Positions 44,066 to 61,915 of a stretch of DNA of 64,000 bases are shown piece by piece. The notes under the pieces were generated by a model. It had not been told where the DNA came from and made no database searches. It was given only the letters and a program-made list of their open reading frames with translations. Both the position numbers and the translations under genes were made by a program. The stretch spans positions 256,001 to 320,000 of the forward strand of contig CAWAGQ010000013.1 in NCBI GenBank assembly GCA_963781585.1, written 5' to 3'. This stretch comes from an uncultured Gemmatimonadaceae bacterium. GTDB lineage: Bacteria > Gemmatimonadota > Gemmatimonadetes > Gemmatimonadales > Gemmatimonadaceae. The first letter of the stretch is position 1, and every line of letters begins with the position of its first letter.

Positions 44066-44992
44066 ATGTTGAGCACCTCTATTGCCGCTGTCCGGCACAT
44101 CTCGGTCGTCAAGTTGGGCGAGTCGATCCTCGAGGCGCTGGGCGTTCTATGGCTCATTCTCGAGATCACGGCTTACTTTTCCACCCAGTCGTCCGCGGTC
44201 ATCAGGCCGTACTGGTGGCTGTTTCTGATCGGGGGCGTTGGAGCAGGCCTCGTCCGCGCTTGGCCTCGACTCGCGGCTTCAGAGATTGTCGAGGGATCGG
44301 ACTGCACCATCGAGATCCGAGTGTGCGATATCCTCTCTCTTCGACACGTCGCACTGGTTGTCGGAACGAACGACACTTTCGATACCGCGCTTTCTGATGG
44401 CACGATTAGCAGCGAGAGCGTTCAGGGTCAGGCGACACTCCGCTTGCTTGCATCTCCGGAACAGCTGAATCGAGAACTCGACCATTCACTCGCTGGAACG
44501 GCGGCCACCGAGTTGTCTTACGATGACAAACCCTTCGGCAACTTAAAGCGATACCCAATTGGGACCGTGGCGAGTGTGGATGCTGGTACGCGGCGCATAT
44601 ACTTCGCCGCCATCGCCTCGCTCAACGCGCACCGCGTGGCCCACACAACCCGCCGGGATATCGCCGATGCGCTACCCCGGATTTGGGAACACATCCGCGA
44701 GCGAGGAGGGCTACACCCCCTGGCGTGTCCCGTGCTCGGATCGGGCTACTCACGATTGGACGCTACACGCGAGGAGCTCATTCGGGAGATCATCCGGTCA
44801 TTCGTGCCGGCAGTGAGGGCTGGAATGTTCTGCCGCGGACTGACGATCGCGGTTAGTCCCCGAGACTTTCGTGATGGACGCGTGAGTCTCACCGCGCTCG
44901 GGAGCTTCCTCGCGCACGAGTGCAAGTACGGAAGCGCGGGGCTGAGCCGGGACGTGGGCGGGCCACTCGGAACACCTCAAGGTTCAGCCTGA
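44066..44992 (+). CDS. thsA: Thoeris type II ThsA: two N-terminal TM helices + Macro domain
   Basis: Two hydrophobic helices, then IEIRVCDIL...VVGTNDTFDT...ISSESVQGQ...YPIGTVA...PVLGSGYSRL; directly follows the TIR gene. Confidence 0.8.
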   Translation: MLSTSIAAVRHISVVKLGESILEALGVLWLILEITAYFSTQSSAVIRPYWWLFLIGGVGAGLVRAWPRLAASEIVEGSDCTIEIRVCDILSLRHVALVVGTNDTFDTALSDGTISSESVQGQATLRLLASPEQLNRELDHSLAGTAATELSYDDKPFGNLKRYPIGTVASVDAGTRRIYFAAIASLNAHRVAHTTRRDIADALPRIWEHIRERGGLHPLACPVLGSGYSRLDATREELIREIIRSFVPAVRAGMFCRGLTIAVSPRDFRDGRVSLTALGSFLAHECKYGSAGLSRDVGGPLGTPQGSA

Positions 44993-47900
44993 TGCCTCGG
45001 ATCTTCGACAACATCCACGATGATCTGCTTCCTGCCCTGCGCGCCATGCTGGAGGTCGCGAATCGTTCCGACTTCAGCGTTGGCTATTTCAACCTCCGCG
45101 GATGGAAGACCCTCGATGATCTCGTCGAGCGGTGGCCGGGAGGTGGGGGCAACCAGTGCCGGCTTCTGGTCGGAATGCAGCGACTCCCGCAGGATGAGCT
45201 CCGCGCGGCCCTGAGTGTCGCTGCCCCGGGGCACGATGAACTCGACAACCAAACTGCGCAGCGACTCAAGAAGAAGCTTGCCGAGGAGTTTCGCAATCAA
45301 CTGACCTTCGGTGTCCCGTCCAATGCAGACGAAGCAGGGCTGCGGCGTCTTGCCGGGCAACTCAGGGCCGGCAAGGTTGTCGTCAAACTGTTCCTCCGGC
45401 ACGCGCTGCACGCCAAGCTGTACCTGCTCTTCCGCACGGACCCCGTCAATCCGATCGTCGGTTACCTGGGCAGCAGCAACTTGACGCTGTCCGGCCTCTC
45501 GCATCAAGGTGAGCTGAACATCGACGTCCTCGATCACGATGCCGCCACGAAACTGGCGAACTGGTTTGAGGACCGCTGGAACGACCGCTGGTGTGTCGAC
45601 ATCACCGAGGAGCTGATCCAGGTCATCGGCGAAAGCTGGGCGCGCGAGGAGGCACTGGCGCCGTACCACATCTACGTGAAGATGGCCTACCATCTTGCGC
45701 AGGAAGCCCGCGCCGGCCTCGCTGAGTTCCGCATCCCTCCAGAGTTCGGGAATCGGCTCTTCGACTATCAGGTTGCTGCCGTCAAGATCGCCGCACACCA
45801 TCTAAACAAGCGCGGCGGCGTGCTGATCGGCGATGTCGTGGGTCTCGGCAAGACGTTGATGGCATCTGCCTTGGCCAAGATCTTCCAGGACGATCACTTC
45901 ACCGAAACCCTGATTATCTGCCCCAAGAATCTCGTGAAGATGTGGGAGGACTACGTCTCCGAGTACCGATTGCTCGCAAAGGTCCTCTCAGTCACCCGCG
46001 CCGCTCGCGAGCTCCCGGAGCTTCGGCGCTATCGCGTGGTGCTCATCGACGAGAGCCAGAACCTCCGCAATCGCGAGGGCAAGCGCTACCGCGCCATTCA
46101 GGAGTACATACAGGAGAACGAAAGCAAATGCATCCTGTTGTCCGCGACGCCCTATAACAAGACCTACCTCGACCTCTCGAGCCAGTTGCGCCTGTTCGTT
46201 GCCGAAGACAAGGACATGGGGATTCGCCCGGAGCGTCTTCTCCGTGAGCTGGGTGAGACCGAGTTCATCCGACGTCACCAGTCACCGGTACGCTCGCTTG
46301 CCGCGTTCGAGAAGAGCGAATATGCCGATGATTGGCGCGAATTGATGCGTTTGTACATGGTGCGCCGGACGCGGAGCTTCATCCAGGACAACTACGCCGC
46401 AACCGATCCGGCAAATGGGCGCAAGTTCCTGACCTTCGAAGACGGCACGCGATCGTACTTTCCTGACCGAATACCCAAGACAGTCAAGTTCCGCATTGAC
46501 GAGAAGAGTCCTTCCGATCAGTACGCGCGGCTTTTCGCCCCTGACGTTGTCGTCGCGATCAACGGGCTTAGCCTGCCCCGGTATGGACTTGCGAACTACG
46601 TGGCCGCCACGCCACACAAGGCACCCACGACAGCGGAGGCAAAGCAGTTGCAGGATCTGTCGCGCGCAGGCAAGCGCCTCATGGGCTTCTGCCGCACCAA
46701 CCTCTTCAAGAGGCTCGAAAGCAGTGGCGATGCTTTCGGACAGTCCATCGAACGACACGTTCTGCGCAACTACATCGTCCTGCACGCCATCGAACACGCC
46801 TTGCCCCTGCCGCTGGGAACGCAGGATACAGGCCTCCTTGACGCTGGCAACTATGACGAAGATGTCGACGACGAGGCTGCGACAGCCGAACTGTTCGAGG
46901 ACGAGAACGGCGATGGTGTGACCGCCCCGCCGCGTGCCGCGCTGCGCAGCGTCGAAGATTTCAAGAAGCGAGCGGCGGAACTCTACGAATCCTACGCGAC
47001 TCAATTCAAGCGGCGCTTCAAGTGGCTCCGGCCGGACTTGTTCGTCAAGTCACTCGCAACCGATCTTGAGGCGGATGCCGTGAGCTTGCTCGAGGTCCGC
47101 ACACGCTGCGGCCAGTGGGACCCGTCAAAGGATGCCAAACTCGATGCGCTCTATAACCTTTTGGAGAAGCGCCACCCCCGCGAGAAGGTACTCATATTCA
47201 CCCAGTTCGCAGACACAGTCCGTTACCTCGAGGCGCAGCTTCGCGCACGCGGAGTCAAGCGGCTCGCTGGCGTCACCGGAGAGGACGAGGACCCCACGAG
47301 CTACGCCTGGCGCTTCAGCCCGGACAGCAACAAGAAACGCAAGCGCCTGCGGCCCGATGAAGAGCTACGTGTTCTGCTCGCGACCGATGTCCTCAGCGAA
47401 GGCCAGAACCTTCAGGACGGGGCCATCATCGTCAACTTCGACCTCCCTTGGGCCATCATCAGGCTCGTTCAGCGGGCAGGTCGCGTCGATCGCATTGGGC
47501 AGAAATCGGAGAAGATCCTTTGCTATTCTTTCCTGCCGGCTGATGGCGTCGAGAACCTGATCCGCCTGCGCGCGCGGGTGCGCCAGCGGCTGCACGAGAA
47601 CGCCGAGGTTGTTGGCACGGACGAAGCTTTCTTTGAGAACGAGAGAGAGCGCCAGAAGCTCCTCGACCTTTACCACGAGAAGTCAGGCATTCTCGATGGG
47701 GAAGCGGAGACCGAAGTGGACCTCGCTTCATACGCCTACCAGATCTGGAAGAACGCCATTGACCGTGATCCAGACCTGCGGAAGTCAATTCCGGCGCTCC
47801 CGCCGGTGGTCTTCTCGACTCGTCCACACGAAAGCACCGAGCGGAAGCCGCATGGCGCCCTCGTCTACCTTCGGACTGCCGAAGGCAATGACGCGCTCGC

Positions 47901-48387
47901 GTGGGTCGACAAGGCCGGCAACAACGTCACCGAGTCCCAGTTCGAGATCCTGAAGGCGGCGGAGTGCACACCCGATACCCGCGCGTTACCCCGCCAAGCA
48001 GATCATCATGACCTCGTACGGAAGGCGGTTGACTTTGTCGTGTCCGAGGAGAAATCGGTCGGCGGCCAGCTGGGCCGCCCATCCGGTGCCCGGTTCCGTA
48101 CTTACGAGCGCCTTAAACGCTACGCCGAGCAGGTCAAAGGCACGCTATTCCAGTCGCCCGAGCTCGCGAAGGCCATCGAAGAGATCTACCGCTTTCCACT
48201 TCGGCAATCGGCCACCGACACCCTGAATCGCCAGCTGCGAGCTGGGATCTCGGACGATAAGCTGGCCGAGCTGGTGATGGCGCTCCGCGACGACGATCGG
48301 CTGTGCTTGGTCCACGAGGAAGAGCACTCCGCCGAGCCCCAGATCATCTGCTCCCTCGGCCTGGCCCCGGCCGAGAGCGGGAGCTGA
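44992..48387 (+). CDS. PLD (HKD) nuclease - SNF2-like helicase fusion
   Basis: SVGYF, LHAKLYL, GSSNLT (PLD); GDVVGLGKT, IDESQN, LSATP, SEGQNLQ, QRAGRVDRIGQ (helicase); ATG overlaps thsA TGA. Confidence 0.9.
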   Translation: MPRIFDNIHDDLLPALRAMLEVANRSDFSVGYFNLRGWKTLDDLVERWPGGGGNQCRLLVGMQRLPQDELRAALSVAAPGHDELDNQTAQRLKKKLAEEFRNQLTFGVPSNADEAGLRRLAGQLRAGKVVVKLFLRHALHAKLYLLFRTDPVNPIVGYLGSSNLTLSGLSHQGELNIDVLDHDAATKLANWFEDRWNDRWCVDITEELIQVIGESWAREEALAPYHIYVKMAYHLAQEARAGLAEFRIPPEFGNRLFDYQVAAVKIAAHHLNKRGGVLIGDVVGLGKTLMASALAKIFQDDHFTETLIICPKNLVKMWEDYVSEYRLLAKVLSVTRAARELPELRRYRVVLIDESQNLRNREGKRYRAIQEYIQENESKCILLSATPYNKTYLDLSSQLRLFVAEDKDMGIRPERLLRELGETEFIRRHQSPVRSLAAFEKSEYADDWRELMRLYMVRRTRSFIQDNYAATDPANGRKFLTFEDGTRSYFPDRIPKTVKFRIDEKSPSDQYARLFAPDVVVAINGLSLPRYGLANYVAATPHKAPTTAEAKQLQDLSRAGKRLMGFCRTNLFKRLESSGDAFGQSIERHVLRNYIVLHAIEHALPLPLGTQDTGLLDAGNYDEDVDDEAATAELFEDENGDGVTAPPRAALRSVEDFKKRAAELYESYATQFKRRFKWLRPDLFVKSLATDLEADAVSLLEVRTRCGQWDPSKDAKLDALYNLLEKRHPREKVLIFTQFADTVRYLEAQLRARGVKRLAGVTGEDEDPTSYAWRFSPDSNKKRKRLRPDEELRVLLATDVLSEGQNLQDGAIIVNFDLPWAIIRLVQRAGRVDRIGQKSEKILCYSFLPADGVENLIRLRARVRQRLHENAEVVGTDEAFFENERERQKLLDLYHEKSGILDGEAETEVDLASYAYQIWKNAIDRDPDLRKSIPALPPVVFSTRPHESTERKPHGALVYLRTAEGNDALAWVDKAGNNVTESQFEILKAAECTPDTRALPRQADHHDLVRKAVDFVVSEEKSVGGQLGRPSGARFRTYERLKRYAEQVKGTLFQSPELAKAIEEIYRFPLRQSATDTLNRQLRAGISDDKLAELVMALRDDDRLCLVHEEEHSAEPQIICSLGLAPAESGS

Positions 48388-48396
48388 GGTGTGCCG

Positions 48397-51393
48397 ATGG
48401 CTCTGAACGCTGCGCGCGCTCGGGAACGTCTCGCCAAGGGTGACCTGCGCGCTCTGTTTATCGAAGAACTCGGATGGGATCGTCATACGGCAACCCTGAG
48501 GGTAACCGTGGACGGCTCAACGCTCGATCTACACGCGCTCGCTCAGAAGCGCGGCATGGTCGCCTACCATTGCCCCGCGCCTGCGGGCCAGCCCCTGCCT
48601 GATTACAGCCACCGCCGCAAGATCGAGCATCAAGTCGCCAAGTCAGCACACGAGCACCTCATCATTTTCACCGACCCGGGCAACCAGACTCAGGTCTGGC
48701 AGTGGGTGAAACGAGAACTCGGAAAGCCGACCGCGTGTCGGGAGCATGCCTACCACCGCTCCCAGCCCGGTGACGCACTGCTCCAGAAGTTGAACGCCAT
48801 TGCGTTCACGCTAGAAGAGGAGGATCGGCTTTCTCTTCCGGACGTCACTCGGCGTGCTCGTGCCGGGTTCGATGTCGAGAGGGTTACCAAGCGCTTCTAC
48901 GACCGCTTCCAGAAGGAGCACGGAGCCTTTCTCAAGTTCATCACCGGCATTACCCAGAGCACCGACCGCGAGTGGTACGCCTCGGTCATGTTGAACCGGT
49001 TGATGTTCGTCTACTTCGTGCAGCGCAAGGGTTTCCTCGACGGCGACCGCCACTACCTCCGCAACCGGCTCGCGCGCATGCGCGCCGAGCATGGCAAGGA
49101 CAAGTTCTACTCCTTCTACCGGTACTTCCTCCTCCGCCTCTTTCATGAGGGGCTCGGCGGCAAGGCGCGCACGCGCGAGCTCGAGGCGCTCGTCGGTCAC
49201 ATCCCGTACCTGAACGGTGGCCTCTTCGACGTCCACGAGCTGGAGAAATCGGATCGCTACGGCAAGACCATCCGGATCCCCGACTCGGCGTTCGAACGCA
49301 TCTTCGACTACTTCGATCAGTACCAGTGGCACCTGGACGAGCGGCCGCTCCGCGCCGACAACGAGATCAACCCAGACGTACTGGGCTACATCTTCGAGAA
49401 GTACATCAACCAGAAACAGATGGGGGCGTACTACACGAAGGAGGACATCACCGAGTACATCAGCAAGAACACTGTGCTGCCGTACCTCTTCGATTCCGCG
49501 CGCACCAAATGCAGAGTTGCGTTCGAGAATGCTAAAGGCCCCACGGTCTGGGACCTGCTGAAGTCCGACCCCGACCGGTACATCTACTCTGCCGTTCGCC
49601 ACGGCGCCGGGGAACCGCTGCCGGCGGACATCTCCGCTGGGCTGAATCCACCGACTTTGCACAAAGCGGTGGGCGACGGCCCCGTCATGACCCTTGAGCT
49701 CAGGAAGGGCTGGAACAGGCCGGCACCCGCGACGCACGCGCTCCCGACGGAGACATGGCGTGAGGTAATCGCGCGCCGGACGCGTTATGAGGAGATCAAG
49801 AAGGGGCTCGCTGCTGGCGAGGTGAGGGACATCAACGACCTCATTACCCTCAACCTCGACATTCGCCAGTTCGCCCAGGATGCCATCGAGAACTGCGAAG
49901 GCCCGGACCTCCTTCGTGCCTTCTGGCATGCCATCGAGAAGGTGACCATCCTCGACCCGACGTGCGGGTCGGGCGCGTTCCTCTTCGCGGCCCTGAATAT
50001 CCTCGAACCGCTGTACGAGGCCTGCCTGGACCGGATGGAGGCCTTCGTTGACGATCTCGCTCGGTCGGGAGAGAAGCATCGCCCGGAAAAGTATTCCGAC
50101 TTCCGGAAGGTGCTGGATCGCATCGCGGCCCATCCCAATCGCCGTTACTTCATCTTCAAGAGCATCATCCTCAACAACCTCTTCGGCGTGGACATCATGG
50201 AAGAGGCGGTGGAGATCTGTAAGCTCCGCCTCTTCCTTAAGCTTGCGGCGCAGGTGGAGCCGGACTCCGCGCGCGACAACCTCGGCATTGAGCCTTTGCC
50301 GGATATCGATTTCAACATTCGCGCCGGCAACACGCTCGTCGGCTACGCGACGCTTGATGCCGTGAAAGAGGCACTCGGCAGCAAGCTCGACTTCGACAAC
50401 GCGGCCGACAAGATCGCGGTTAAGGCCGCAGATCTCCAGCAGGTCTTCGACGCATTCCGGGCGCGGCAGGTGGAGGGCGACGGTTCTGTTCCGGCGGAGC
50501 ACAAGCAGGAGCTCCGCAAGCGTCTGAGCGCCCTGGATGAGGAACTCAACCGTCACCTTGCGAATGAGTACGGCGTCGAGTGGACGAAGAAAGACGCCTA
50601 CACCAAGTGGCTGAAGTCCCATCAGCCATTCCACTGGTTCGTCGAATTCTACGGGATCATGAGCGGTGGCGGGTTCGACGTGATAATTGGGAACCCGCCG
50701 TATCTGGAGTACTCCAAGGTTGCCGAGTATTCAGTCCGCGGGTACGCGACTGAGCGATGCTCGAATCTCTACGTGTATACGGTCGAGAGGTCGCTCGCTC
50801 TGAACGGCCCCCGTGGGAGCTTGGGGATGATCATCCCAATCTCAGCCGCATGTTCCGGCGCCATGCAGCCGCTCCGTGACCACCTCACGCAGCGGGCCGG
50901 ATCGCTCTGGCTCTCTCATTTTTCAAACCGCCCGGGTCAGCTGTTCAATGGAGCCCAGAACCGTCTGACGATACTTGTCGCCTCGAGACGGCGTGGAGAC
51001 CGAAAGGTCTTCTCCACTCGATACCATAGATGGGACGCCAGAAATGGCGAACGAGACAGCCTGTTTCCCGTCTTGCGTTACCTCGAGACAGGCGAGGAGG
51101 CGCCCATGTTTCATGGGCTTCTCCCCAAGATTGGTACTCCCGAAGCAGCCGCTGTGCTGAAGAAGATCAGATGTGCCAAGACGGTCGCGTTCTTCACCAC
51201 AAGGCGCGGCAAGTACAAGCTCTTCTGGGTGCGCGTGCCCGGCTATTTCTGTGTCTTTCTTCCCGGCCGCTTGCCGCGCGGCTTTCAAGGCAGGCCGGAT
51301 CCTGTTCTTGTCCCCGTTCACCAAGCATCCGAGGCGTGTCACGAAGGAGTCTGCCCTCCGGCGCAACGAGGTGGTCGCCGCGCTCGCAGATGA
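48397..51393 (+). CDS. Eco57I/type IIG-like N6-adenine DNA methyltransferase, C-terminus probably truncated near 51255
   Basis: PYLNGGLF, LGYIFE, GAYYT, LDPTCGSGAF (motif I), IIGNPPY (motif IV); the tail after RVPGYFC looks out of frame. Confidence 0.85.
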   Translation: MALNAARARERLAKGDLRALFIEELGWDRHTATLRVTVDGSTLDLHALAQKRGMVAYHCPAPAGQPLPDYSHRRKIEHQVAKSAHEHLIIFTDPGNQTQVWQWVKRELGKPTACREHAYHRSQPGDALLQKLNAIAFTLEEEDRLSLPDVTRRARAGFDVERVTKRFYDRFQKEHGAFLKFITGITQSTDREWYASVMLNRLMFVYFVQRKGFLDGDRHYLRNRLARMRAEHGKDKFYSFYRYFLLRLFHEGLGGKARTRELEALVGHIPYLNGGLFDVHELEKSDRYGKTIRIPDSAFERIFDYFDQYQWHLDERPLRADNEINPDVLGYIFEKYINQKQMGAYYTKEDITEYISKNTVLPYLFDSARTKCRVAFENAKGPTVWDLLKSDPDRYIYSAVRHGAGEPLPADISAGLNPPTLHKAVGDGPVMTLELRKGWNRPAPATHALPTETWREVIARRTRYEEIKKGLAAGEVRDINDLITLNLDIRQFAQDAIENCEGPDLLRAFWHAIEKVTILDPTCGSGAFLFAALNILEPLYEACLDRMEAFVDDLARSGEKHRPEKYSDFRKVLDRIAAHPNRRYFIFKSIILNNLFGVDIMEEAVEICKLRLFLKLAAQVEPDSARDNLGIEPLPDIDFNIRAGNTLVGYATLDAVKEALGSKLDFDNAADKIAVKAADLQQVFDAFRARQVEGDGSVPAEHKQELRKRLSALDEELNRHLANEYGVEWTKKDAYTKWLKSHQPFHWFVEFYGIMSGGGFDVIIGNPPYLEYSKVAEYSVRGYATERCSNLYVYTVERSLALNGPRGSLGMIIPISAACSGAMQPLRDHLTQRAGSLWLSHFSNRPGQLFNGAQNRLTILVASRRRGDRKVFSTRYHRWDARNGERDSLFPVLRYLETGEEAPMFHGLLPKIGTPEAAAVLKKIRCAKTVAFFTTRRGKYKLFWVRVPGYFCVFLPGRLPRGFQGRPDPVLVPVHQASEACHEGVCPPAQRGGRRARR

Positions 51394-51478
51394 GGCGTAC
51401 GTCGCGCACGTCGCAAGCGGCGGGAAGACAGACCAGATCGTGAAGAAGCTGGCGGAGTGGAAGGTGCCGCTTCTGTGA
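51255..51478 (+). pseudogene. 3' remnant of a DprA/Smf (SLOG)-like gene
   Basis: AGRILFLSPF...RRVTKESALRRNEVVAALADEAYVAHVASGGKT resembles the DprA-like C-terminal RN..VAALAD motif; no N-terminus. Confidence 0.6.
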
Positions 51479-51511: not shown

Positions 51512-51569
51512 GTCTAACGAAGTAAAGATTCGTGCCGCGCGATAGCCGCGGCACAATCTGGGGTTGAAC
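51512..51569 (+). other. attC site 1
   Basis: R'' GTCTAAC, stem AGATT(C)GTGCCGCG/CGCGGCACAATCT with an extrahelical base, R' GTTGAAC. Confidence 0.8.
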
Positions 51570-51782
51570 TCAGTCCGCCCCGCGGCAGGGCCTTGGAGTT
51601 TCAGGCGGGTGCGTGACCCGAGGCGACGTCCAGGACGCCCAGCGAAGCGAGCGTCAGGCGGCCTGCCGAGCCCAGACCGGGGGCCGCGCACCGGACCAGC
51701 CGCGCGCGATTGAGGCCGGCGCAGCGTTGGCCGTGCGCTCCGGCGATCATGGGGCGCGGCTTCGCCGGACCACGCGCGCGGA

Positions 51783-52952
51783 TCATGCGGCGACTGTGGC
51801 AGTCGGTGGGGTGGAGCACGGCGAGGACCACGAGTCCGGCGGCGCGCGCGATCGGGTGAAGTGGTCGATGACCACGAGGCGACCGCGCCGACAGACCGGG
51901 CAGCAGGGGTCCGGCGCGGTTGGTGGCTGGTCGTGCGCGACCGGAGTCTGCGCCGGGATGTTGCTCGCGGACTTCGGGACGCCGTCGCGAGCGTGAAGCT
52001 CGAGGAGATCGCGGGCCCGTTCCAGCTGCGTGCGGCGGCCGGGGCTCAGGAGACCATAGGAGCGGACCTTGGTGAAGCCTCGGGGGAGGACGTGCTGGAG
52101 GAAACGGCCGATGAAGGTGTTCACCGGCAGCGTCAGGCGCCGGGTCTCCCCGGTGCGTGCGTGGGTATAGCGGAAGGTGACGCGATCATTGCTGAAGCGT
52201 TCGATGCGGTGGTTGGTGAGGGCGACGCGGTAGATGTAGCGGGAGAGATAGAGTGCGGCGTGCTGCCCGGTGCCGATGGCCTTGACGTGGACCGTCCAGC
52301 GGTGGGTCCACACGCCGGGATCGACCTCGCCGGCGAGGCCGGCTCGTGCGAACGCGTCGCGCATCTTCGCCCGGAAGATCGGGGAGAGCATGTAGCCCGG
52401 GACGAGGAAACGAGAATGAGCGGGCTTGATCCAGGCCGTGCCGTCCGCGCCGAGGCCGCCGGCGCTGACGAGGAGGTGGACGTGGGGATGGTGCTCCAGG
52501 GTGCGCGACCAGGTGTGGAGTACGGCGAGGATGGCGGGAGTGCCGCCCACCCAGTTCGGGTCCTTACAGAGCGTGAGGACAGTGGCAGCTGCTTCGCGTA
52601 GAAGGGCGGCGTATACCAGGCGCTGGTGCGATCGGGCGACGGACCGCAGCCCCTGTGGGAGGGTGAACGTGAGGAGGTAGTGGCCGGTGTGGAGAAGCCG
52701 CTGCCGGACTCGCTCCAACCATCTCTGGGCCCGATCGTCCTGGCACGTGGGACAGTGGCGGTTGCGGCAGGAGTGGTAGCGGTACGCGAGGGCAGCGCAC
52801 TCGTCGCAGCGGTAGAGCGAGCCACCGAGGGCCGGTGTGCGACACTGGACGATGTCGTTCATGGCCCTCCGGTGGGAGGGCAGGAGCGGTCCGGCGTGGG
52901 TCCGCAGATACTCGGGCCCCGCCCTGCGGAGGATGTCCGCGAGCTCCACCAC
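51783..52952 (-). CDS. IS91-family (Y2) rolling-circle transposase with Zn-binding domain
   Basis: CRTPALGG...CDEC...HSCRNRHCPTC; LHTW...HPHVH (HUH); YLSRYIYR (YxxxY); RFLQHVLPRGF. Confidence 0.92.
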   Translation of the reverse strand: MVELADILRRAGPEYLRTHAGPLLPSHRRAMNDIVQCRTPALGGSLYRCDECAALAYRYHSCRNRHCPTCQDDRAQRWLERVRQRLLHTGHYLLTFTLPQGLRSVARSHQRLVYAALLREAAATVLTLCKDPNWVGGTPAILAVLHTWSRTLEHHPHVHLLVSAGGLGADGTAWIKPAHSRFLVPGYMLSPIFRAKMRDAFARAGLAGEVDPGVWTHRWTVHVKAIGTGQHAALYLSRYIYRVALTNHRIERFSNDRVTFRYTHARTGETRRLTLPVNTFIGRFLQHVLPRGFTKVRSYGLLSPGRRTQLERARDLLELHARDGVPKSASNIPAQTPVAHDQPPTAPDPCCPVCRRGRLVVIDHFTRSRAPPDSWSSPCSTPPTATVAA

Positions 52953-52999
52953 GGCCCGTCTCGGGGGCAGTGGCTGTCTGAACCGACGGGCCTAACGAC

Positions 53000-53872
53000 T
53001 CAAGAGCGACGCGCCATGAGATCGTTGATCGGACTCAGCGCGGCGTCGTGGAGCTCCCGGGTGAGGTGGGTGTAGATGGCGGTTGTTCTGGGACTGGTGT
53101 GGCCCAGATACTCCTGGATCAATCGCAGATTGACACCGGCCTCCAGCAGGTGCGTGGCGTAGCTGTGCCGGAGCGTGTGGACGTGCGCGCGCTTGTGGAT
53201 ACCGCTGGCCCTGACAGCACGGACGAAGGCGCTCTGAAGGCTGGCGCGGGAGATGGGGCCCACGGCCGGGTCGCTCAGGACGCCGGCATGGGATCGGGTG
53301 ATCGTGGGGAAGAGCCAGAGGGGATTACGGTGCGTCCGCCAGTGCTCTCGCAACAGCGCGAGGGTGGCGTCCGGGAGCGGGACGTAGCGATCCTTGCGGC
53401 GCTTGCCGTGAATGTGGAGCAGCTTCCGGGCACCATCGACATCGGGGACCTGGAGGCGGGCGCCCTCCAAGAGGCGGAGGCCGCAGGCGTAGATGGTCGT
53501 CAGGCAGACGCGGTAGACGGGAAGTCGAAGATGATCCAGGATTTGCCAGACCTCGCCGCGGCTCAGGACGACCGGGAGCTTCTTCTCCCCCTTGGGCCGG
53601 GCCACCTTGAGGACCATCCACTCGCGCCCAAGCGTGTGCTGGTAGAAGAACTTGAGGCCGCAGAGGGCGATGGTGTGGGTGCCCCGGGCGACCTTCTGAA
53701 CGGTGGTGAGGTGAAGGAGGTAGTCGCGGAGCTGCTCTTCCGTGAGGGTGTCGGGTGAGGCATGATAGAAGCGGGCCAGCTGAGCGACGGAGCGGACGTA
53801 GGCTTCGACGGTGCGATCGGAGTAGCCGCGGAGCTGGAGATCCTGGATCATGCGTTGGCGGAGCGGTGTCAT
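53000..53872 (-). CDS. Tyrosine recombinase (phage-integrase family, SAM-like N-terminus)
   Basis: MTPLRQRMIQDLQLRGYSDRT; GLRLLE, HTLRHSYATHLLE, LGH...TTAIY (R-H-R-H-Y intact). Confidence 0.92.
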   Translation of the reverse strand: MTPLRQRMIQDLQLRGYSDRTVEAYVRSVAQLARFYHASPDTLTEEQLRDYLLHLTTVQKVARGTHTIALCGLKFFYQHTLGREWMVLKVARPKGEKKLPVVLSRGEVWQILDHLRLPVYRVCLTTIYACGLRLLEGARLQVPDVDGARKLLHIHGKRRKDRYVPLPDATLALLREHWRTHRNPLWLFPTITRSHAGVLSDPAVGPISRASLQSAFVRAVRASGIHKRAHVHTLRHSYATHLLEAGVNLRLIQEYLGHTSPRTTAIYTHLTRELHDAALSPINDLMARRS

Positions 53873-53991
53873 GGTGTCCTCGCTGAAGGGGTTCAGCGTG
53901 AACATTGGACATCACTCCGCCAACTTCATCAGCCACGGTGGAGTAAGGGCACGCACCGAAATCGCAGTGCTAGACGCCGAAGGCGGATTGA

Positions 53992-54085
53992 GTTCAACCA
54001 CGCGTTGCAGCCGACGCGGGCGCCATGGTGGCGGCTTCGCCGCTTTGATTGGACTGCCCGCGCAGCTGAACGCTAGGCGTTAGGC
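53992..54085 (+). other. attC site 2
   Basis: GTTCAAC-CACGCGTTGCAGCCGACGCGGGC...GCCCGCGCAGCTGAACGCTAGGC-GTTAGGC imperfect hairpin. Confidence 0.85.
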
Positions 54086-54098: not shown

Positions 54099-54593
54099 AT
54101 GAGCACTTCAGAGCTGGACACTCAGTCTGCAGCGGAGCGACGATCGGCGGAAGCCCGGTTGCGGGCGCTTATCGCCAAGTGCGTTCCCGCGCACCAACGG
54201 CTCACCGGCGCATTGCGACGATGGCTGCGAAAGCGCCTGCCCACCGCCCATGAGGTGGTCTATGAGTATTCTGACTGCCTCGTCATCAGCTATTCACCGA
54301 ACGAGCGCGGGTATGACGGGGTCCTTGCCATCCGCGCGAGCGCCGACGGAGTCAAGCTGTACCTCAATCGTGGCACGGGATTGCCGGATCCTGAGAAACT
54401 GTTGCGGGGGTCCGGCAAACAGACGCGCTGGATTCCCGTGGAGGGCGCATCCACACTCGCTCGCTCGGCGGTCGTGGACGTGATCGACAGAGCCATCGCT
54501 CGAAGTCGCGTCCCGTTTGGGCGCACCGGCCTTGGGTTGGTGGTCATTCGTTCGGAAGTGGCCAAGGCGCGTGGGCGGCGTCGCCCCGCCTAA
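54099..54593 (+). CDS. DUF1801/YdhG-like cassette protein
   Basis: LRKRLPTAHEVVYEY...LPDPEKLLRGSGKQTRWI; its stop lies in a degenerate R'' GCCTAAA (54588) matching the cassette start GTTAGGCGG. Confidence 0.65.
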   Translation: MSTSELDTQSAAERRSAEARLRALIAKCVPAHQRLTGALRRWLRKRLPTAHEVVYEYSDCLVISYSPNERGYDGVLAIRASADGVKLYLNRGTGLPDPEKLLRGSGKQTRWIPVEGASTLARSAVVDVIDRAIARSRVPFGRTGLGLVVIRSEVAKARGRRRPA

Positions 54594-54653
54594 AAAACCC
54601 CTGGAGCTGGCGGGAAGGGAATCTCGTAGAACATTCCTCTCGTAGGACCCTGC

Positions 54654-55618
54654 GTGAGGCACGCACACATCGCGTTCATGGTTGCTGCAGCAGCCGTGCT
54701 GCAAGGGCAGCAACCGCAGCTGCCGCCGGCGCCTGGCAAACTGGTGGATATTGGAGGTAGGCGACTCCACGTCATGTGCAGCGGCTCCGGCTCACCCACG
54801 GTCGTCCTCGAGGCGGGCGCCTCGTCTTTCGCGATCGACTGGACGCTGGTGCAACGGTCGGTGGCTCGCACCGCGTGTCTGTTCCTACGACCGCGGTGGT
54901 ATGGGATGGAGTGATCCGTCTTCGGGTACCTTCATCGACGCCGCAAGAAGACCTCCACAAGCTGCTGGCGGCAGTTTCGGAGCACCCTCCATTCATCCTC
55001 GTCGGGGCCTCACGAGGTGGACTCTTTATCCGTGCGTTTCAGGCCGACTATCCGTCGGAAGTCGCCGGGTTGGTATTTGTCGACCCGTCGACTGAAGACC
55101 GCCTATTCACCGTCTTTGAAGGTCACGACGTGTTGATCGCATCGCTGACCGCCCAGCAGCTTCGCTCGACACTTCCGACAGCACCGGTCGTGGTCCCGCG
55201 CCGGCAACCGCAGACCGGCGCGCCCTTCGACCGCCTGCCGCCGCAGCTCCATCGAACTCGCGTGCTGCTTGACGAACGGCTCATTGCCTCATACCCAGAT
55301 ACCGTCACACCAGAGGTTGTCGCCGCCTTCTCCGAGAGCGAACGAGCGCTCTTGGCGCGCCTCCGAGCGCTTCGTGCTCCGACGCGACACCCGCTCGGCA
55401 GCCTTCCCACGGTCGTTCTGACGCGGGGCAATCCGAGAAACAACGAACGCGAGGCGGCGCATCGTTCCCTGGCCTGTCTCTCGACGGATTCACGCCACAC
55501 CATCGTCGCCGGCGCCGGCCACGAGATCCATCTGTTCAAACCGAACGCCGTCGTTCAGGCAATCGAGGACGTGATCGAAGCCGTTCGTTACAATGCGCCC
55601 CTGCGAACGCTGCGTTAA
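54654..55618 (+). pseudogene. Alpha/beta hydrolase, two frameshifts
   Basis: GKLVDIGGRRLH...PTVVLEAG / RVCSYDRGGMGWSD / ILVGASRGG...GAGHEIH are split across three frames. Confidence 0.75.
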
Positions 55619-55660
55619 CGCGGGCGTGAGACATCACCACAAATCGCGGATTGCAGCCAG

Positions 55661-56368
55661 GTGTTGACTGACCTCGAGCTGATGCAGTTGCACGTGGACG
55701 CCGAATTCACGCAGGACGCGGCTGGCCATCTGGTGTCAACGAATGAGCCAACAGCGGCCCCCGCGCCACGGTTCTTCCTGGGCCAGACCGCGCTCGGCGT
55801 TGTTCGCCGCTACCGGCGCGACGTGTCACTTGCACGCCGAAGGATGCTGGAGGCCGCCCTCGCGGACGCCGGAGGTGATCGCTCCAATGTGGCCCTCGAC
55901 GGGCCGCTCGATCCGACGCCGTTCGAGGAGATTCTGTCAAAGGAAGCGCCCATCCAGCATACCTCAGTTGGAATCGCATTCCGCTTCCCGGACGTGTTGC
56001 CAGCAGATCCTGCCACCCGGATCCTATGTAGCACCGCAGAGGCCTCGCTGCTACATCCGTTGCTTGCGGCATGGGCGCCGGACATCCAGTTGTCCGCACC
56101 ACTCGTGGCGTACGTCTCTTATGGCGTGGCTGTCGCCGTGTGCGGCAGCGTGCGGATCACGCCCCGCGCGCATGAAGCAGGAGTAGAGACGGCTGCACCC
56201 TATCGGGGCCATGGCTACGCGAGTGCCGCCGTGGCGGCGTGGGCGACGACCGTGCGCGCACTCGGAGTAGAGCCGTTGTACAGTACAACGTGGCGGAACG
56301 CGGCCTCGCAGGGCGTCGCGCGGAGCTTGGGGCTTGTTCCATTTGGGCGCGATCTGCATATCACGTGA
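55661..56368 (+). CDS. GNAT-family acetyltransferase
   Basis: EAGVETAAPYRGHGYA...PLYSTTWRNAASQGVARSLG. Confidence 0.8.
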   Translation: MLTDLELMQLHVDAEFTQDAAGHLVSTNEPTAAPAPRFFLGQTALGVVRRYRRDVSLARRRMLEAALADAGGDRSNVALDGPLDPTPFEEILSKEAPIQHTSVGIAFRFPDVLPADPATRILCSTAEASLLHPLLAAWAPDIQLSAPLVAYVSYGVAVAVCGSVRITPRAHEAGVETAAPYRGHGYASAAVAAWATTVRALGVEPLYSTTWRNAASQGVARSLGLVPFGRDLHIT

Positions 56369-56381
56369 CGGCCCTCGTGAC

Positions 56382-56496
56382 GTCTGACAACGCGTTGCAG
56401 CCGGCAGGAACGCAAACGGTAGGTGACACAATCCCCTCCGCGAAACACAGCGTTGATGCCATCCGACCCCTGACGGGCGAATAGTCGCGTTTAGAC
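56382..56496 (+). other. Degenerate attC
   Basis: GTCTGAC-AACGCGTTGCAGCCGGCAGG...GTTTAGAC; its left part matches attC2. Confidence 0.5.
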
Positions 56497-56626
56497 GAAC
56501 AATTGCCGCTGTCGTGAATATCTGATCAATTCGACAACGGATCGCGAGTTGTGCAGGATGCGGACGTGTCTACGGGCAAGCGCGAGGGCGATGAAGCCGC
56601 CCAGGCTGCCGGAAGAGGTGCCGGCA

Positions 56627-57189
56627 TGAAGATGGCGTATCGAGAACGGTGGGAGGCGGAGATCGCGGCGATGCGGCGGGTGCTCGCCGGCTTTGCGATG
56701 CGGGAGGAGTGTAAGTGGGGTAAGCCGACCTACACGGTGGATGGGAAGAACATCGTCATCATGCAGGGCTTCAAAGAATACTTCGCGCTGGGCTTCTTTC
56801 AGGGCGCCCTGCTGAAGGACCCCAGGAAGGTGCTGGTGCAGCTCCGTCAGGTACACGCCGGGCGGGTGATGAAGTTCACCAGCGTGAAGGACATCACGGC
56901 GAAAGCAGCCACCATCAAGGCCTACGTGCGCGAAGCCATCGCAATGGAGAAGGCTGGGCGGCGGATGGAGCGCAGGAAAACCTCGGATTATCCGGTTCCC
57001 AAGGAGCTGGCGGAGAGTTTCCGAAGGGACCCGCGGTTCAAGCGCGCCTTCGAGGCGCTGACGCCGGGGCGGCAGCGGAGTTACCTCTACCACTTTGCCG
57101 CGGCCAAGCAGTCGGCGACGCGGGTGGCACGGATCGAAAAGGCGAGGCCGGCGATTTTCGAAGGCAGAGGGTTCCTGGAGAGGCGCTAG
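56627..57189 (+). CDS. YdeI/OmpD-associated (DUF1801 + OmdA) protein
   Basis: EECKWGKPTY, FFQGALLKDP, FEALTPGRQRSY, AKQSATRVARIEK; start uncertain. Confidence 0.85.
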
Positions 57190-57273
57190 TCATTCACAGC
57201 ACGACGGCCTGACCGGCCGGCTCCTCGAGGAGAAAGCGACCATGAGTCGTCGCAGTGACCGGTCGTTCGCGCC

Positions 57274-57357
57274 GGATAACCAGGCATGGCAGCGGATGAT
57301 TGGACTTCCTCGCTTCGCTCGCGCGGCCACTCGCCGCTGAATGCCACAACGTTAGGC
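57274..57357 (+). other. attC site
   Basis: GGATAAC-CAGGCATGGCAGCGGATGA...TCGCCGCTGAATGCCACAAC-GTTAGGC. Confidence 0.7.
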
Positions 57358-57361
57358 ATAC

Positions 57362-57559
57362 ATGACTGGAGGAATGGCAAGGATGAACGCACAACCCACC
57401 TCGCGGCAGACTCTTGGGAAGTGGACCGGCATCGGACTCGCACTTGGTGTGGCGCTCGGCGCAGCGTTAGGCAACGTTGGGCTCGGCGTGGCGTTCGGCG
57501 TTATAGCGGGTGCGGTGATGGGGGCAACGATAAGCAGGCGCTCGAAGGACGACGGCTGA
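57362..57559 (+). CDS. Small glycine-zipper membrane protein (cassette)
   Basis: GIGLALGVALGAALGNVGLGVAFGVIAGAVMG directly after GTTAGGC; start may be 57375 or 57383. Confidence 0.6.
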   Translation: MTGGMARMNAQPTSRQTLGKWTGIGLALGVALGAALGNVGLGVAFGVIAGAVMGATISRRSKDDG

Positions 57560-58427
57560 CCTGCACGTCACGCTCGGGCTGACCGTCGTGGTGGGCATGG
57601 TGGTGGCGCTCGTTCCAGCGCTGCTGTCGTGGCGCGGCGATCTCGCGCATGCCCTCCGCGGCGGGGCACGGGGCGGGCACAGCGAGGGGGCGCGGTTGCG
57701 TTCCGGATTGCTGGTCCTGCAGGCGACGCTCGCGGACGTGCTGCTGGTGGGCGCCTCGCTGTTCGTGCGCAGCCTCGATGCGGTGCGCGACCTGCGCATG
57801 TCGCCGAGGACGTGGTGCAGCAGAACCTGTCGGGCGGGACGCGCTACCACTTCTACATCCCCATCGAGCAGTTCACGCGGACCTGGGGGAATGGGCTCGT
57901 GGTTCGCGTACGGGGGGACGTGGCTCGCGAGGCCGGGGCCGTGCGGGATGCGCTGCAACGGGTCATCCCGGCCGCCGTCGTACGTCATGGTCCGGCGGCT
58001 CGACGACATCGTCGGCACCGCGCAGCGACCGTGGCGGCTGGGGGCGACGATGTTCAGCATGTTCGGGCTTCTCGCCCTGGTCGTGGCGTCGGTCGGACTG
58101 TACGGCACCATCAGCTATGGCGTGGCGCAGCGCATGCACGAACCTGGTGTGCGCGTGGCCCTGGGGGCGCAGCGAGGGAACATCATGCGCCTGGTGGTAG
58201 GCCACGGATTCTGGCTGGCGCTCGCGGGCACCGTCCTCGGCGCGTTGATCGCACTCGCCGCGGGGCCGCTGATCCAGCCGCTCCTCTTCCGGCAGTCGGT
58301 CCGTGATCCGATCGTGTTCGCGGGCGTCGCTGTGCTGATGGTGGGCCTGGCATTGCTCGCGAGCGCGGTGCCGGCGAGGCGTGCGGTGCGGGCGGACCCG
58401 AACTCGGCGCTGCGTTCGGCGGATTGA
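57560..58427 (+). pseudogene. Fragmented ADOP/MacB-FtsX ABC permease
   Basis: LLVGASLFVRSL; frameshifted middle; FGLLALVVASVGLYG...GVRVALGA...PARRAVRADP C-terminus; no N-terminus. Confidence 0.75.
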
Positions 58428-58648
58428 GCGCCTGACGCGGCAGCCGGAACCCGGTCCGCGCATGCGCCGGAGCGGCGAGGCCGGCGCGGCTTGCAGATGC
58501 CGGTGAGCCGCAGCGCCTCGTCCGCAGCGGGCGTGGGCATCGAACGCAGCGCTCCGCGGGAGGGGAGCGCCCAGCATGCGATTGCGGCGGGCCGATACCG
58601 ACATCAGAATGTCGCGTGTGGTAGTTTTCCAACGCACCGAGCGCCGCC

Positions 58649-58739
58649 GCTTACCGTGCTTGCTGCTGACGATCGGGTCCAGGAACCCCGCTGCGCTCGC
58701 GATGGCGTGATCGCCTCGCAGCAGAAGCTGTCGTTAGGC
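58649..58739 (+). other. Degenerate attC
   Basis: GCTTGCTGCTGACG...CGCAGCAGAAGC-TGTC-GTTAGGC. Confidence 0.6.
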
Positions 58740-58776
58740 AGCCGGTGGCGCGCCGAGCAGCCAGACGGGGACTGAA

Positions 58777-58944
58777 ATGAGAAGCCAGACCAGCACCGCA
58801 CTCTACGTAGTGTTGATGGCAGCCGTGATCGTCGCGATCGATGTGTTGTTCTTCAGGAACCGGTTCTGGGAACGGCTAACGGTGAACGTAGGAATCGTCC
58901 TGGTATTCGCAGCCTTCTACTTCAGATTCCTGACACGTCCATGA
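58777..58944 (+). CDS. 55-aa two-TM small protein (cassette; absent from the ORF track)
   Basis: MRSQTSTALYVVLMAAVIVAIDVLFFRNRFWERLTVNVGIVLVFAAFYFRFLTRP; cassette ends GTTAGGCAGCCGGTG / CACCCGCTGCTTAAC are nearly complementary. Confidence 0.7.
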   Translation: MRSQTSTALYVVLMAAVIVAIDVLFFRNRFWERLTVNVGIVLVFAAFYFRFLTRP

Positions 58945-59047
58945 CTATGGCGGAGGGCTCACGTGTGGCGATAGTTGGCCGCACCCGCTGCTTAACGCCT
59001 GGTGGTTGGGCCGGCAGGCCCACACATCAACTCTGAGAGGATGGGAC

Positions 59048-60527
59048 ATGCCTCCTGGACTCCGACAACTATTCAAGGGAACCCTGCTGCTCGCCTGCGC
59101 TACTGCTCAGACAGCGGCTCAGACGCCGGCGCTCTCGACGGCGCCAGTCGGGCAGCGGGATCTGTCCGAGTATGAGGGGCTCTACAACTACCGCGACGGT
59201 GGCAGGTTGTCCATCGTCGCAGGCGGCGACCGACTGGTGGCAGTCATCGGCGGAGCGAAGTATCGGCTTCGTGCCGCGGGCGTGGACACGTTCACGAACC
59301 CCGGAGGTGACCCGATTCCCTTTTTGCGTGACGCCAACGGTCGGATCGTGGCCTTCAAGGAGCACGATGATACGTTTCGGAGGCGCTCATCGAGCGTGCC
59401 GGTGTCCGTGCGGCTGCTGTTCGAGCCGCGTCCGAAGGACGCGGCAGGACGGCCGGTCGTCTACCATTACGCACCGCCCCGGCAGCTTGCGGACGGTATT
59501 CGCGCCGGCGTGGCTGGATCGGACACTCTCTGGCCGGCGGTTGCGGGGCGGCTCGTAGACGGCGTCATGGATCGGCACGTACCCCGATGTGCATTCGATC
59601 CTCGTCTATCACAAGGGTGCGTTTCGACTCGAGGAGTACTTCTACGGCTACAATCGCGATCGGCCGCACCAGATGCGCTCCCTCACCAAGAGCGTGATCT
59701 CGCTGCTTGCCGGAGTGGCCGTGGACCGGGGACTGCTCCGCGCCGATGAACCCGTGCTCGGGCAGCTCGGCTATCCGGCCTACCGGAATCCCGATGCTCG
59801 CAAGGGGCGAGTGACGCTGACGGACCTCCTGAGTAACCAGTCGGGCTTCGCCTGTGACGACCACGACGACGCTTCGCCGGGCAATGAGGTGAAGCTGTAC
59901 GACACGCCGGATTGGGTGAAGGCGTTCGTCGATCTGCCCATGGTGGCCGATCCGGGCACCGTCGGACGCTACTGCTCCGGCGGCATTCTCACGGCAGGCC
60001 GAATCGTCGAACGCGCGGCGGGCAAGTCCCTGCCGGCTTTCGCGCAGGAGGCCTTGTTCGGGCCGCTCGGTATTCAACGATCCGAGTGGCACTGGGACTT
60101 CAGGCTCGATCGCAGCCAGCGCAATGAGTTCGGGCAGATCTACCTCACGCCCCGTGACATGCTGAAGCTCGGGATCCTCATCCAGCGCCGCGGGGAGTGG
60201 GGAAACCGGCGGGTTGTGTCCACCACATGGATCGACGCCGCCGTTGCCCGGCAGTCGCATGTCGACGACAGCGACTACGGCCTGGGGATCTGGCATCGCT
60301 GGTACCGCGTGCAGGCGCGAAGCGGGGACCGCCGCGTCGACACCATCATGCTCTCGGGGAACGGCGGCCAGAAGGTGTATCTCGTTCCGTCCCTCGATCT
60401 GATCGTCGTATTCACGGGAGGTGCCTACAACACGGAGTCGCCTGCGAACGAGATGATGGCAGGGGTGCTCCTGCCGGCGCTGATTGAGGCCGAGGCGACC
60501 ATGTTGCGCCCCTCGGGTGGCGGCTGA
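59048..60527 (+). pseudogene. Serine hydrolase (class C beta-lactamase-like), one frameshift near 59570
   Basis: Signal peptide in 59006 frame; RSLTKS (SxxK), YCSG, SGNGGQ in 59589 frame. Confidence 0.75.
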
Positions 60528-60732
60528 GCGACAGGTCGTTAGGCTGCGGTAACAATCCTACGCACATGGCAATTGCAGGCGTCCGCCGCCTATGCGGCGA
60601 ATTCGGGCCAGTTTCTGAAGAACACATTTCCCCCGAAGGGAGGCTTCTGTTCGTTGCAGTCGCGATTGACTCATTCGACTGGCGTCAGCAGTCGCGGGGG
60701 ATACTGTGCCCTTGACCGTTAGGCTTTGGGAG

Positions 60733-60821
60733 GAAACGTTACAGCCGACAAGCCGCACACGAGCGTAGTTGGACTTCCAGGTTCAGCCCGCGGCTTGCGG
60801 GTGAACGTCAAGCCGTTAGGC
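60733..60821 (+). other. attC with degenerate R''
   Basis: ACGTTACAGCCGACAAGCCGC...GCGGCTTGCGGGTGAACGT-CAAGCC-GTTAGGC. Confidence 0.65.
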
Positions 60822-60842
60822 ATACGCATCAAGGACGTAATC

Positions 60843-61193: not shown

Positions 61194-61299
61194 CTGACCT
61201 GCGGGCGTTGATGACGCATTTCACACGGTCGCTGCCGGCGAACCTGGATGCCGAAGATGATCGCTGGCTCGTGACAATCCTCGCCGCGAGACCTCCCGC

Positions 61300-61869: not shown

Positions 61870-61915
61870 CCCGCCGGCGTTATGTCGATGCGCACTGCCT
61901 AACAAGGAGGTCCCG

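Follow-up and report, generated by a model that had tools for sequence, protein, structure and literature searches.

Background

According to the passages on IS91 in a published account (PMC13181058), this insertion sequence (IS) inserts without duplication of its target, has a tetranucleotide beside its oriIS end, carries one palindrome at terIS and one or two at oriIS, and moves through a functional intermediate that is a single-stranded circle of the bottom strand; the gene orf121, located upstream of tnpA, sharpens recognition of the ter end. Here we describe a related element in a stretch of 64,000 nucleotides (nt) from an uncultured Gemmatimonadaceae bacterium (GenBank assembly GCA_963781585.1, contig CAWAGQ010000013.1, positions 256,001 to 320,000), which is referred to in its full length as the window. 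The element lies on the minus strand at window positions 51518-53997, within an array of integron gene cassettes, and encodes an HUH transposase of the Y2 type and a tyrosine recombinase.

Integron arrays are thought to be protected from wrong-way insertion by the choice of the bottom strand by the integron integrase, IntI. In the attC sites of the cassettes, the AAC of the top strand lies in the R'' box and recombination there inverts the cassette (Nivina et al. 2016, PMC5027507); passages of the same paper state that IntI recombines top strands at low frequency and that no inverted cassette has been seen in integrons, whether mobile or chromosomal. PMC9229058 mentions the IS1111-attC group and group IIC-attC introns, and notes an IS91-like element beside an attC in Shewanella, left unexplained there.

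Comparison of the window element with its copies and relatives led us to the following reading, to which we give a probability of about 0.7: it is an active IS of the IS91 family, of the subgroup with an upstream tyrosine recombinase (named member ISAzo26), which moves by a rolling-circle mechanism, forms a mimic of an attC when its ends are joined and targets the attCs of integrons. An earlier note, made from the letters of the window, had proposed a selfish element that mimics or targets cassette sites, possibly on folded single strands. The core of this idea holds, and the action is probably on folded single strands; the anatomy of the element was misread.

Results and discussion

Extent of the element and comparison of its copies

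BLAST analysis identified three identical copies of the element in the source genome (G000), namely the window copy (C13) and two others, C7a and C7b, at about G000:C7:172261-174740 and 182860-185339. The C7 copies sit in the array of a true integron, the intI of which scores 434 bits on the NCBIfam integron-integrase model TIGR02249. A genome of the same genus (G001) contains a further copy with 100% identity at about G001:C13:6260-8739. All data used in this work are assemblies, many of them metagenome bins, and the source genome is 93.5% complete with 7.2% contamination.

When C13, C7a and C7b were aligned in the window orientation, no differences were found from CTAAC at 51514 through GTTCAAC at 53998. 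The left flanks of the three are unrelated as far as G[T/C], and to the right of the element the attC body of C7b is unlike that of C13 and C7a. The G001 copy has GCCTAAC at its left joint and is joined on the right to yet another sequence. The four copies thus have four different flanks, with joints of the form G[Y]CTAAC on the left and GTTCAAC followed by the host L'' on the right. From this comparison the mobile unit is 51518-53997, 2480 bp in length, with an ambiguity of 3 nt over the AAC (51516-53995 is equally possible). The parts of the element are as follows.

51518-53997, minus strand: mobile element, limits from comparison of copies
51519-51525, minus strand: conserved spacer of the ori end, GAAGTAA on the plus strand and TTACTTC on the minus strand; unpaired in the folded junction and similar to the terminal motif of IS1294 and IS91 oriIS
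51526-51559, minus strand: L-box-like stem-loop of the attC mimic, 5 bp, bulged C at 51531, 8 bp, loop of 7 nt
51563-51579, minus strand: internal inverted copy of the ter end (left repeat arm), containing the R'-like box GTTGAAC at 51563-51569
51575-51585, minus strand: ori-proximal palindrome, hairpin CCGC-CCC-GCGG, read in the sequence
51783-52952, minus strand: Y2 HUH transposase of the IS91 family, 389 amino acids, Pfam Y2_Tnp and Zn_Tnp_IS91
53000-53905, minus strand: tyrosine recombinase, 301 amino acids, Phage_int_SAM_4 and Phage_integrase domains
53975-53985, minus strand: subterminal hairpin of the ter end, CGCC-GAA-GGCG, read in the sequence
53982-53998, minus strand: ter end and right repeat arm; its terminal GTTCAAC (53992-53998) is now the R'' of the right-hand hybrid attC

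The earlier note had placed the start of the element at 51563, at the crossover of a supposed host attC ("attC1"). This start is contradicted by the copies, which are identical leftward to 51514, so that "attC1" belongs to the element; likewise the stem-loop at 51519-51562 belongs to the element because it is common to all copies while the flanks differ. An arrangement in which the unit runs from 51563 to 53998, bounded by repeats of 17 nt and lying exactly between two host attCs, has in its favour that the repeat and the hairpins are real and that ..ACTGA^GTTC (the caret marks a joint here and below) looks like a classical ori end followed by a GTTC target. We nevertheless regard it as very improbable, since the same stem-loop lies to the left of 51563 in all copies while the right-hand attC bodies differ, and since the stem-loop follows the lineage of the element, not the host attCs. 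In this genome BLAST found the stem-loop in the three element copies and nowhere without the element; among 13 metagenome contigs retrieved by a pattern scan no lone stem-loop was found, the internal box (whole or cut by the start of the contig) adjoining it in 13 of 13.

The same comparison bears on the idea of an ordinary cassette with antisense genes that is moved by the host IntI, its repeat being the normal complementarity of R' and R''. The TTGAAC at the start and the GTTCAAC of the next attC do match the R' and R'' expected of such a cassette. Its own downstream attC should however be constant and its upstream neighbour variable, and the copies show the reverse; moreover, the complementarity runs 10 nt past the R box and covaries across phyla. 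This explanation is hardly credible.

Equivalent boundaries were obtained from one complete Smithellaceae chromosome, in which three identical copies share the sequence from G^TTGAAC to TATACGTT^ and are followed by GTTATGG, GTTGGGC and GTTAGCA, respectively. Identical copies in different sites, as read from the assemblies, suggest that the element is active.

Ends of the element and fold of the joined ends

To compare the ends, relatives were collected by a scan of one genome per species, which gave 29 loci; with genomes of the same order added, 18 rows with both ends were obtained, representing 14 distinct elements. In the window, the arms 51562-51579 and 53982-53999 form an inverted repeat of 18 nt with 94% complementarity, the best long pair in the region. 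The terminal inverted repeats of 17 bp claimed by the earlier note are therefore real as a repeat, but not as two termini: the 17-nt repeat is the ter end paired with an internal inverted copy of itself that lies 45 nt inside the ori end. The small subterminal hairpins which it had reported at 51575 and 53975 are both present. The repeat is beyond chance because the arrangement recurs in 18 of 18 rows, with arms that differ by lineage yet remain complementary.

A second inverted repeat was observed between 51441-51459 and 53913-53931 (19 nt, 89% complementary), joining the end of the upstream cassette gene to the leader of the recombinase gene. It is unusually good but probably due to chance.

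When the window ends were joined and the strand antisense to the genes was folded, a hairpin resulted with a perfect R box, GTTCAAC/GTTGAAC, extended to 17 bp, an unpaired spacer of 7 nt versus 3 nt, and an L stem in which 5 bp and 8 bp are separated by a bulge. The layout of this joined-end hairpin is that of an attC, in which RYYYAAC and GTTRRRY boxes pair and are followed by a spacer left unpaired, an L stem with a bulge and a loop that varies. The same layout was found in 13 of 13 rows folded (L054 was left out of this count). In the different lineages the junction folds into a basal stem of 12-17 bp, then an internal loop with 5-7 nt on its 5' side, above which come an L stem with a bulge or mismatch and a loop that varies in length. 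The L-box-like stem-loop at 51526-51559 gave z scores of -3.1 and -3.4, and its stems covary across lineages, as judged from the folds of individual sequences since the MAFFT alignment of the ori region misplaced the 3' halves between lineages.

Within the apical loop (window 51544-51547, GGCT on the minus strand), GGCT or GCT is kept in 12 of 12 aligned lineages while the stems vary. The conserved GGCT may be a protein contact.

Insertion site in the host attC

The flanks of the window element and the array beside it are listed here.

51512-51517, plus strand: host-derived part of the split R'' box, GTCTAA; left flank G[T/C] in three copies
53998-54085, plus strand: remainder of the invaded host attC, consisting of C, L'', loop, L' and R' GTTAGGC (54079-54085), from the rejoined flanks
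54099-61900, plus strand: downstream host cassette array, with R' GTTAGGC at 57351, 58733, 60538, 60718 and 60815

Rejoined in a script, the window flanks form one canonical attC of 94 nt with GTCTAAC, L'', loop, L' and GTTAGGC. In this site and in those rebuilt for the clear relatives the extra base is on the AAC arm. The insertion point is thus the AAC of the host R'' box on the top strand, opposite to the crossover used by IntI. There is no target-site duplication, as the rejoined flanks are intact attCs and the ambiguity is confined to the common AAC. The empty sites that the earlier note had called for accordingly fold as canonical attCs, in the form of reconstructions from assemblies.

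By the swap of the R'' box, two hybrid sites are formed, GTCTAAC..GTTGAAC and GTTCAAC..GTTAGGC, so that an attC-like site lies on each side of the element; both retain the L stem and have two mismatches in the R stem. The earlier note had described the element as ending in GTTCAAC, the R'' of a second host attC. GTTCAAC is indeed found at 53992-53998, but the element sits inside a single host attC, which it splits at R''.

The cassettes are on the plus strand: between 54.8 and 62.4 kb, Pfam matches were obtained for 6 of 7 plus-strand open reading frames (ORFs) versus 0 of 5 long minus-strand ones, including hydrolase, GNAT, DUF1801/OmdA, beta-lactamase-family and cupin matches, and GTTAGGC boxes sit just upstream of the gene starts. 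The element has a fixed orientation, with its genes antisense to them. The R' boxes read on the bottom strand as GCCTAAC, the commonest heptamer of this kind in these arrays, and none of the insertion sites read was at this position. Depending on how the AAC is assigned, the flank on the ori side is RYYY (GTCT, GCCT) or YAAC, which is related but not identical to the classical IS91 tetranucleotides.

The element does not behave as a gene cassette in its present limits, which lie at R'' boxes, with the hairpin upstream in the orientation of the array. In the sense of its own genes it does read as one (G^TTGAAC, genes, R'' GTTCAAC, stem-loop, G^TT), and this raises the question of whether it is an inverted cassette moved purely by tyrosine recombination of top strands, by its own recombinase or by the host IntI, with no part for the Y2 enzyme in the junctions. 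Recombination of top strands by IntI does occur at the low frequency stated in PMC5027507, and up to G^TTAGGC the invaded attC is common to C13 and C7a, which differ in their left neighbours, as if IntI had moved the core together with the attC. Yet every lineage has an intact Y2 gene with the catalytic motifs, the terminal motifs match the ori and ter ends of the IS91 family, and the statement in PMC5027507 is that inverted cassettes were never observed. We consider this explanation quite unlikely. The attC shared by C13 and C7a would then reflect later shuffling by the host IntI, to which the core of the element plus a host attC may resemble an ordinary cassette.

Another candidate, that the C13 array was brought in by one-ended transposition from the ori end, was rejected, as a truncated gene fragment (stop at 51478) lies between a restriction-modification gene and the split attC, and as the same-genus genome, with a degraded copy of its own, shows synteny with the right flank of the array.

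Relatives in other phyla

The relatives were found in Gemmatimonadota, Chloroflexota, Acidobacteriota and Desulfobacterota, and in addition in a Salinivibrio record (Vibrionaceae). Recombinase identity lies between 46% and 84%, and is near 40% for one more distant branch. The end architecture is kept in all 18 rows, both stems varying in sequence yet staying paired. Read in gene sense, every element begins with (G/A)^TT(G/T)(A/G)AC, 3-5 nt and a hairpin, and its 3' end consists of an inverted copy of the element start, whose last letters are GTTCAAC or nearly so, followed by a stem-loop, a spacer rich in pyrimidines (CTTTAyTTC, CTTAATAC, CCTATTAC or CTTTATAC) and a final (G/A)TT.

The comparison of flanks across homologues that the earlier note had suggested gave 20 informative insertions. 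By reading the folds by eye, 15 of them were assigned clearly to attCs (14 different sites), three probably (L017, L030 and the G001 C13 copy) and two not (L018 and L026). Homologues therefore neither lack the inverted ends nor insert without regard to attCs. The calls were made in this way since the automatic choice of the R' partner gave wrong boxes at several sites (such as C7b, L027 and L028). At Desulfobacterota loci of low GC content, the closest ORF on either side runs antisense to the element, in 6 of 6 cases upstream and 5 of 5 downstream. In the Salinivibrio record the element sits in a Vibrionaceae array with the joint ACTTAA^C, and 8 of 8 annotated neighbouring coding sequences are on the opposite strand. 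In the 13 metagenome contigs the 3' flank starts with GTTA in every case, and a canonical attC was rebuilt in all four contigs with both flanks long enough. A true intI, above the TIGR02249 cut-off, lies about 0.2-1.1 kb from the element in G000 C7, L031, L012 and L019.

At one further locus (L050 11282-11530, equal to G001:C26 about 101281-101529), a degraded relative was observed in which most of the Y2 gene is deleted. Immediately behind ..GGCGGATTGAGTT of the ter hairpin, a group II intron (Rfam RF02001, 102 bits) begins with GTGTG, so that the element end is itself the target of a hairpin-seeking intron.

The two genes and the proposed mechanism

The two genes are intact and antisense to the array, as the earlier note had stated, and both have Pfam and NCBIfam matches. 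The transposase scored 153.7 bits for Y2_Tnp and 95.1 bits for Zn_Tnp_IS91 in Pfam, and 353.1 bits for NCBIfam IS91 (NF033538, cut-off 125). In the alignment its zinc-binding cysteines, HUH motif (HVH) and YxxxY are kept in every lineage examined. These domains, the absence of target duplication and the layout of the ter and ori palindromes (one hairpin at the 5' end of the window element and two at the 3' end) place the element in the IS91 family.

The best NCBIfam match of the recombinase is TIGR02249, at 201.5 bits below the cut-off of 265, whereas true IntIs reach 380-470 bits. It aligns in two stretches, model positions 5-181 and 216-314, and the IntI-specific insert of 31 residues is absent: compared with the genome's own IntI, 13 of 13 element recombinases show a gap of 31 columns. 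All 13 lineages have the catalytic residues R-K-HxxR-H-Y. A small tree groups the element recombinases into a single clade (support 92/96), sister to the IntI clade (84/68). By its sequence, the recombinase is IntI-like but lacks the IntI-specific insert.

Under the favoured reading, the Y2 enzyme would cut the ori and ter ends and, as has been shown for IS91, copy out a single-stranded circle of the element. The released circle would be the strand antisense to the genes, whose junction hairpin has the AAC on its 5' arm, and its polarity would thus equal that of the top strand of the host attC. The folded junction would then pair with the folded or single-stranded top strand of a host attC, and strands would be exchanged at the AAC. 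Exchange at the AAC between the junction hairpin and a host attC hairpin would give exactly the product observed.

For the integration step we tentatively favour the IntI-related recombinase that the element encodes, given that neither enzyme has lost a catalytic residue in any of the lineages examined. The layout of R box, spacer and L box, which would be of no use to a classical IS91, and the lack of any observed insertion at the far commoner bottom-strand GCCTAAC of R' also argue for the recombinase. Integration by the Y2 enzyme is a possible but weaker candidate, to which the homology of the ends to classical ends, some insertions by plain hairpins outside attCs and the locus L025 point. 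A division of labour in which the HUH enzyme copies out the circle, and the insert-less recombinase acts on the top strands of host attCs as a mirror-image integrase, is similarly conceivable rather than probable.

In another scheme, Y2 would do all the cutting and joining as in classical IS91, and the preference for attCs would come from a tetranucleotide by a hairpin together with a single-stranded template strand. The recombinase would be an accessory that might improve recognition of the ter end, restrain transposition like IS91 Orf121, or resolve products. The ends are homologous to the ori and ter ends of IS1294 and IS91, the target is not duplicated, the recombinase gene sits upstream of tnpA where IS91 has orf121, L018 and ISAzo26 lie beside plain hairpins, and the ori terminus of L025 is imprecise. 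However, the six catalytic residues of the recombinase are kept in all 13 lineages, which is unexpected for a mere DNA binder; the bottom-strand GCCTAAC of R', so common in the arrays, has received no insertion that we saw; and the arrangement of the joined ends into R box, spacer and L box would be needless. We think this scheme rather unlikely. When GC skew was used as a test for the lagging-strand template, C13 was positive on the host-top strand; C7 was noisy and locally reversed.

Several observations weigh against the favoured reading. The AAC common to donor and target masks the cut, so a tyrosine recombinase (AA^C) and an HUH enzyme are indistinguishable by it; the donor and target junction triplets are identical in every case, including the two ATT lineages L018 and L024, and the enzymes are not told apart. 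The spacer of the attC mimic is asymmetric (7 nt vs 0-3 nt), and no pairing is predicted for the R boxes of the integrated hybrids. The attC calls come from inspection of folds, not from the output of a dedicated detector, and the likeness to the ends of IS1294 and IS91 spans about 10 nt, also judged by eye. The L018 and L026 insertions as well as ISAzo26 are outside attCs, L018 and ISAzo26 adjoining plain hairpins. Two elements, L012 (reverse strand) and L019 (3650-3870), lie beside intI, 210-340 nt from it, in an apparent attI and apparently in cassette orientation; both contigs end before the 3' junction, and the L012 flank (..CAATATATAG^TT) resembles the attI of G000. They may be insertions at attI in cassette orientation. 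L025 (about 2470-2513) has a tandem duplication of the terminal 21 nt of its ori end and, at the junction, two additional T; conservative recombination explains this less well than an imprecise HUH event would, and it may be a trace of imprecise initiation or termination.

Neighbouring genes and host integrons

Upstream of the array, at window 43100-43408 (plus strand), a frame of 267 amino acids matches the integron-integrase model at positions 26-74 and 272-315 only. It groups with the genome's true IntI in the tree and runs in the same direction as the array 8 kb downstream. It resembles a remnant of intI with an internal deletion, and the C13 array may be a decayed second integron rather than a stray cluster. 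Between this frame and the array are two large ORFs (44920-51393, plus strand), the second of which is a restriction-modification methylase of the Eco57I/MmeI type. They are followed by an ORF of 101 amino acids (51290-51478, plus strand) with no family match in Pfam or NCBIfam; it seems to be a truncated cassette gene, and its C-terminal half may resemble the end of a DprA/SLOG-type protein.

Within the array, the cassette gene of the beta-lactamase family (PF00144, window 59006-60527, plus strand) consists of two overlapping ORFs, 59006-59749 and 59589-60527, and may carry a frameshift. A copy with 74% similarity adjoins the degraded element in G001.

In the main integron of G000 C7, intI (G000:C7:185783-186859, minus strand) is co-directional with the cassettes, an inverted-integrase layout, and a likely attI (..CAATATTT GTTAGAC) is located about 100 nt past the intI stop. 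C7b and the Smithellaceae copy L031 each lie in the attC of the first cassette.

Significance

The element family systematically takes the unused top-strand position of attCs in at least four phyla, and would be a third kind of attC-targeting parasite after IS1111-attC elements and group IIC-attC introns. For the unexplained recombinase gene of ISAzo26-like members of the IS91 family it points to a definite function, and it provides a natural system in which to study the recognition of strand polarity in a DNA hairpin by a tyrosine recombinase or an HUH enzyme. Since each insertion is flanked on both sides by attC-like sites, these elements may generate new boundaries between cassettes, and read-through of the IS91 type might move cassettes between arrays. 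If the division of labour between the two enzymes is true, it is one not known to have been described for any transposon, it would create the inverted cassettes said never to occur, and its hybrid attCs would let the host IntI later shuffle the element core and its neighbours.

Comparison with known systems

IS91-family elements with a recombinase gene and other attC-targeting elements are already known. In the full-text papers that could be searched, a set with subscription journals and ISfinder notes outside it, no R''-specific attC targeting, self-carried attC mimic or role for the recombinase was found.

With IS91, IS801 and IS1294 the window element shares a Y2 HUH transposase (27-29% identity), the absence of duplication, one palindrome by the ter cut and, under the mechanism proposed here, rolling-circle movement through a single-stranded circle. 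It differs in that those elements have no recombinase gene and target GTTC, CTTG or GTCC anywhere rather than a structured site. Two copies each of IS91 and IS1294 were compared by eye for their ends. In tnpA sense, the ori end is ..TTCCTATCGAT^ in IS91 and ..TTCCTATACGT^ in IS1294, then GAAC or CAAG, and the IS91 ter end is CGAG, 2 nt and a palindrome. The 3' terminus of the window family (..CTTTAyTTC, CCTATTAC or CTTTATAC, then GTT) resembles these ori ends, and its 5' end (GAAC, 3-5 nt, palindrome) the ter ends of IS91 and IS1294. The part of the IS1294 ori region that was read showed no inverted copy of the ter end.

The closest named relative is ISAzo26. The Aromatoleum aromaticum EbN1 plasmid record annotates a recombinase and then an "IS91-like element ISAzo26 family transposase", which bears out the remark of the earlier note that IS91-like elements with an upstream tyrosine recombinase exist. 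ISAzo26 has the same gene pair in the same order, a recombinase that is 42% identical and of the same clade, and ends of the same architecture (GTTGGAC..., then an inverted copy of the 5' end that leads into an internal GTCCAAC, and a long stem after it). In contrast, the copy examined is on a plasmid beside a plain palindrome, outside any integron, whereas the window clade has TTGAAC/GTTCAAC boxes and sits in the R'' boxes of attCs. Further IS91-family members with an upstream tyrosine recombinase gene in ISfinder are ISSod25, ISSde12, ISWz1, ISMno23 and ISCARN110.

Like a gene cassette, the element has its limits at conserved GTT/AAC triplets and is found in cassette arrays next to intI; its hairpin site likewise has an R box, a spacer that is unpaired and an L stem with a bulge. 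Unlike a cassette, it crosses over at R'' on the top strand, is inverted and encodes its own enzymes. IS1111-attC elements and group IIC-attC introns also invade attCs in a specific orientation by exploiting the structure of the site, as the window element does. Their enzymes, an IS110-family transposase in the former and a reverse transcriptase plus ribozyme in the latter, are unrelated to those of the window element, and to our knowledge neither brings a replacement attC-like site with it, as the window element does.

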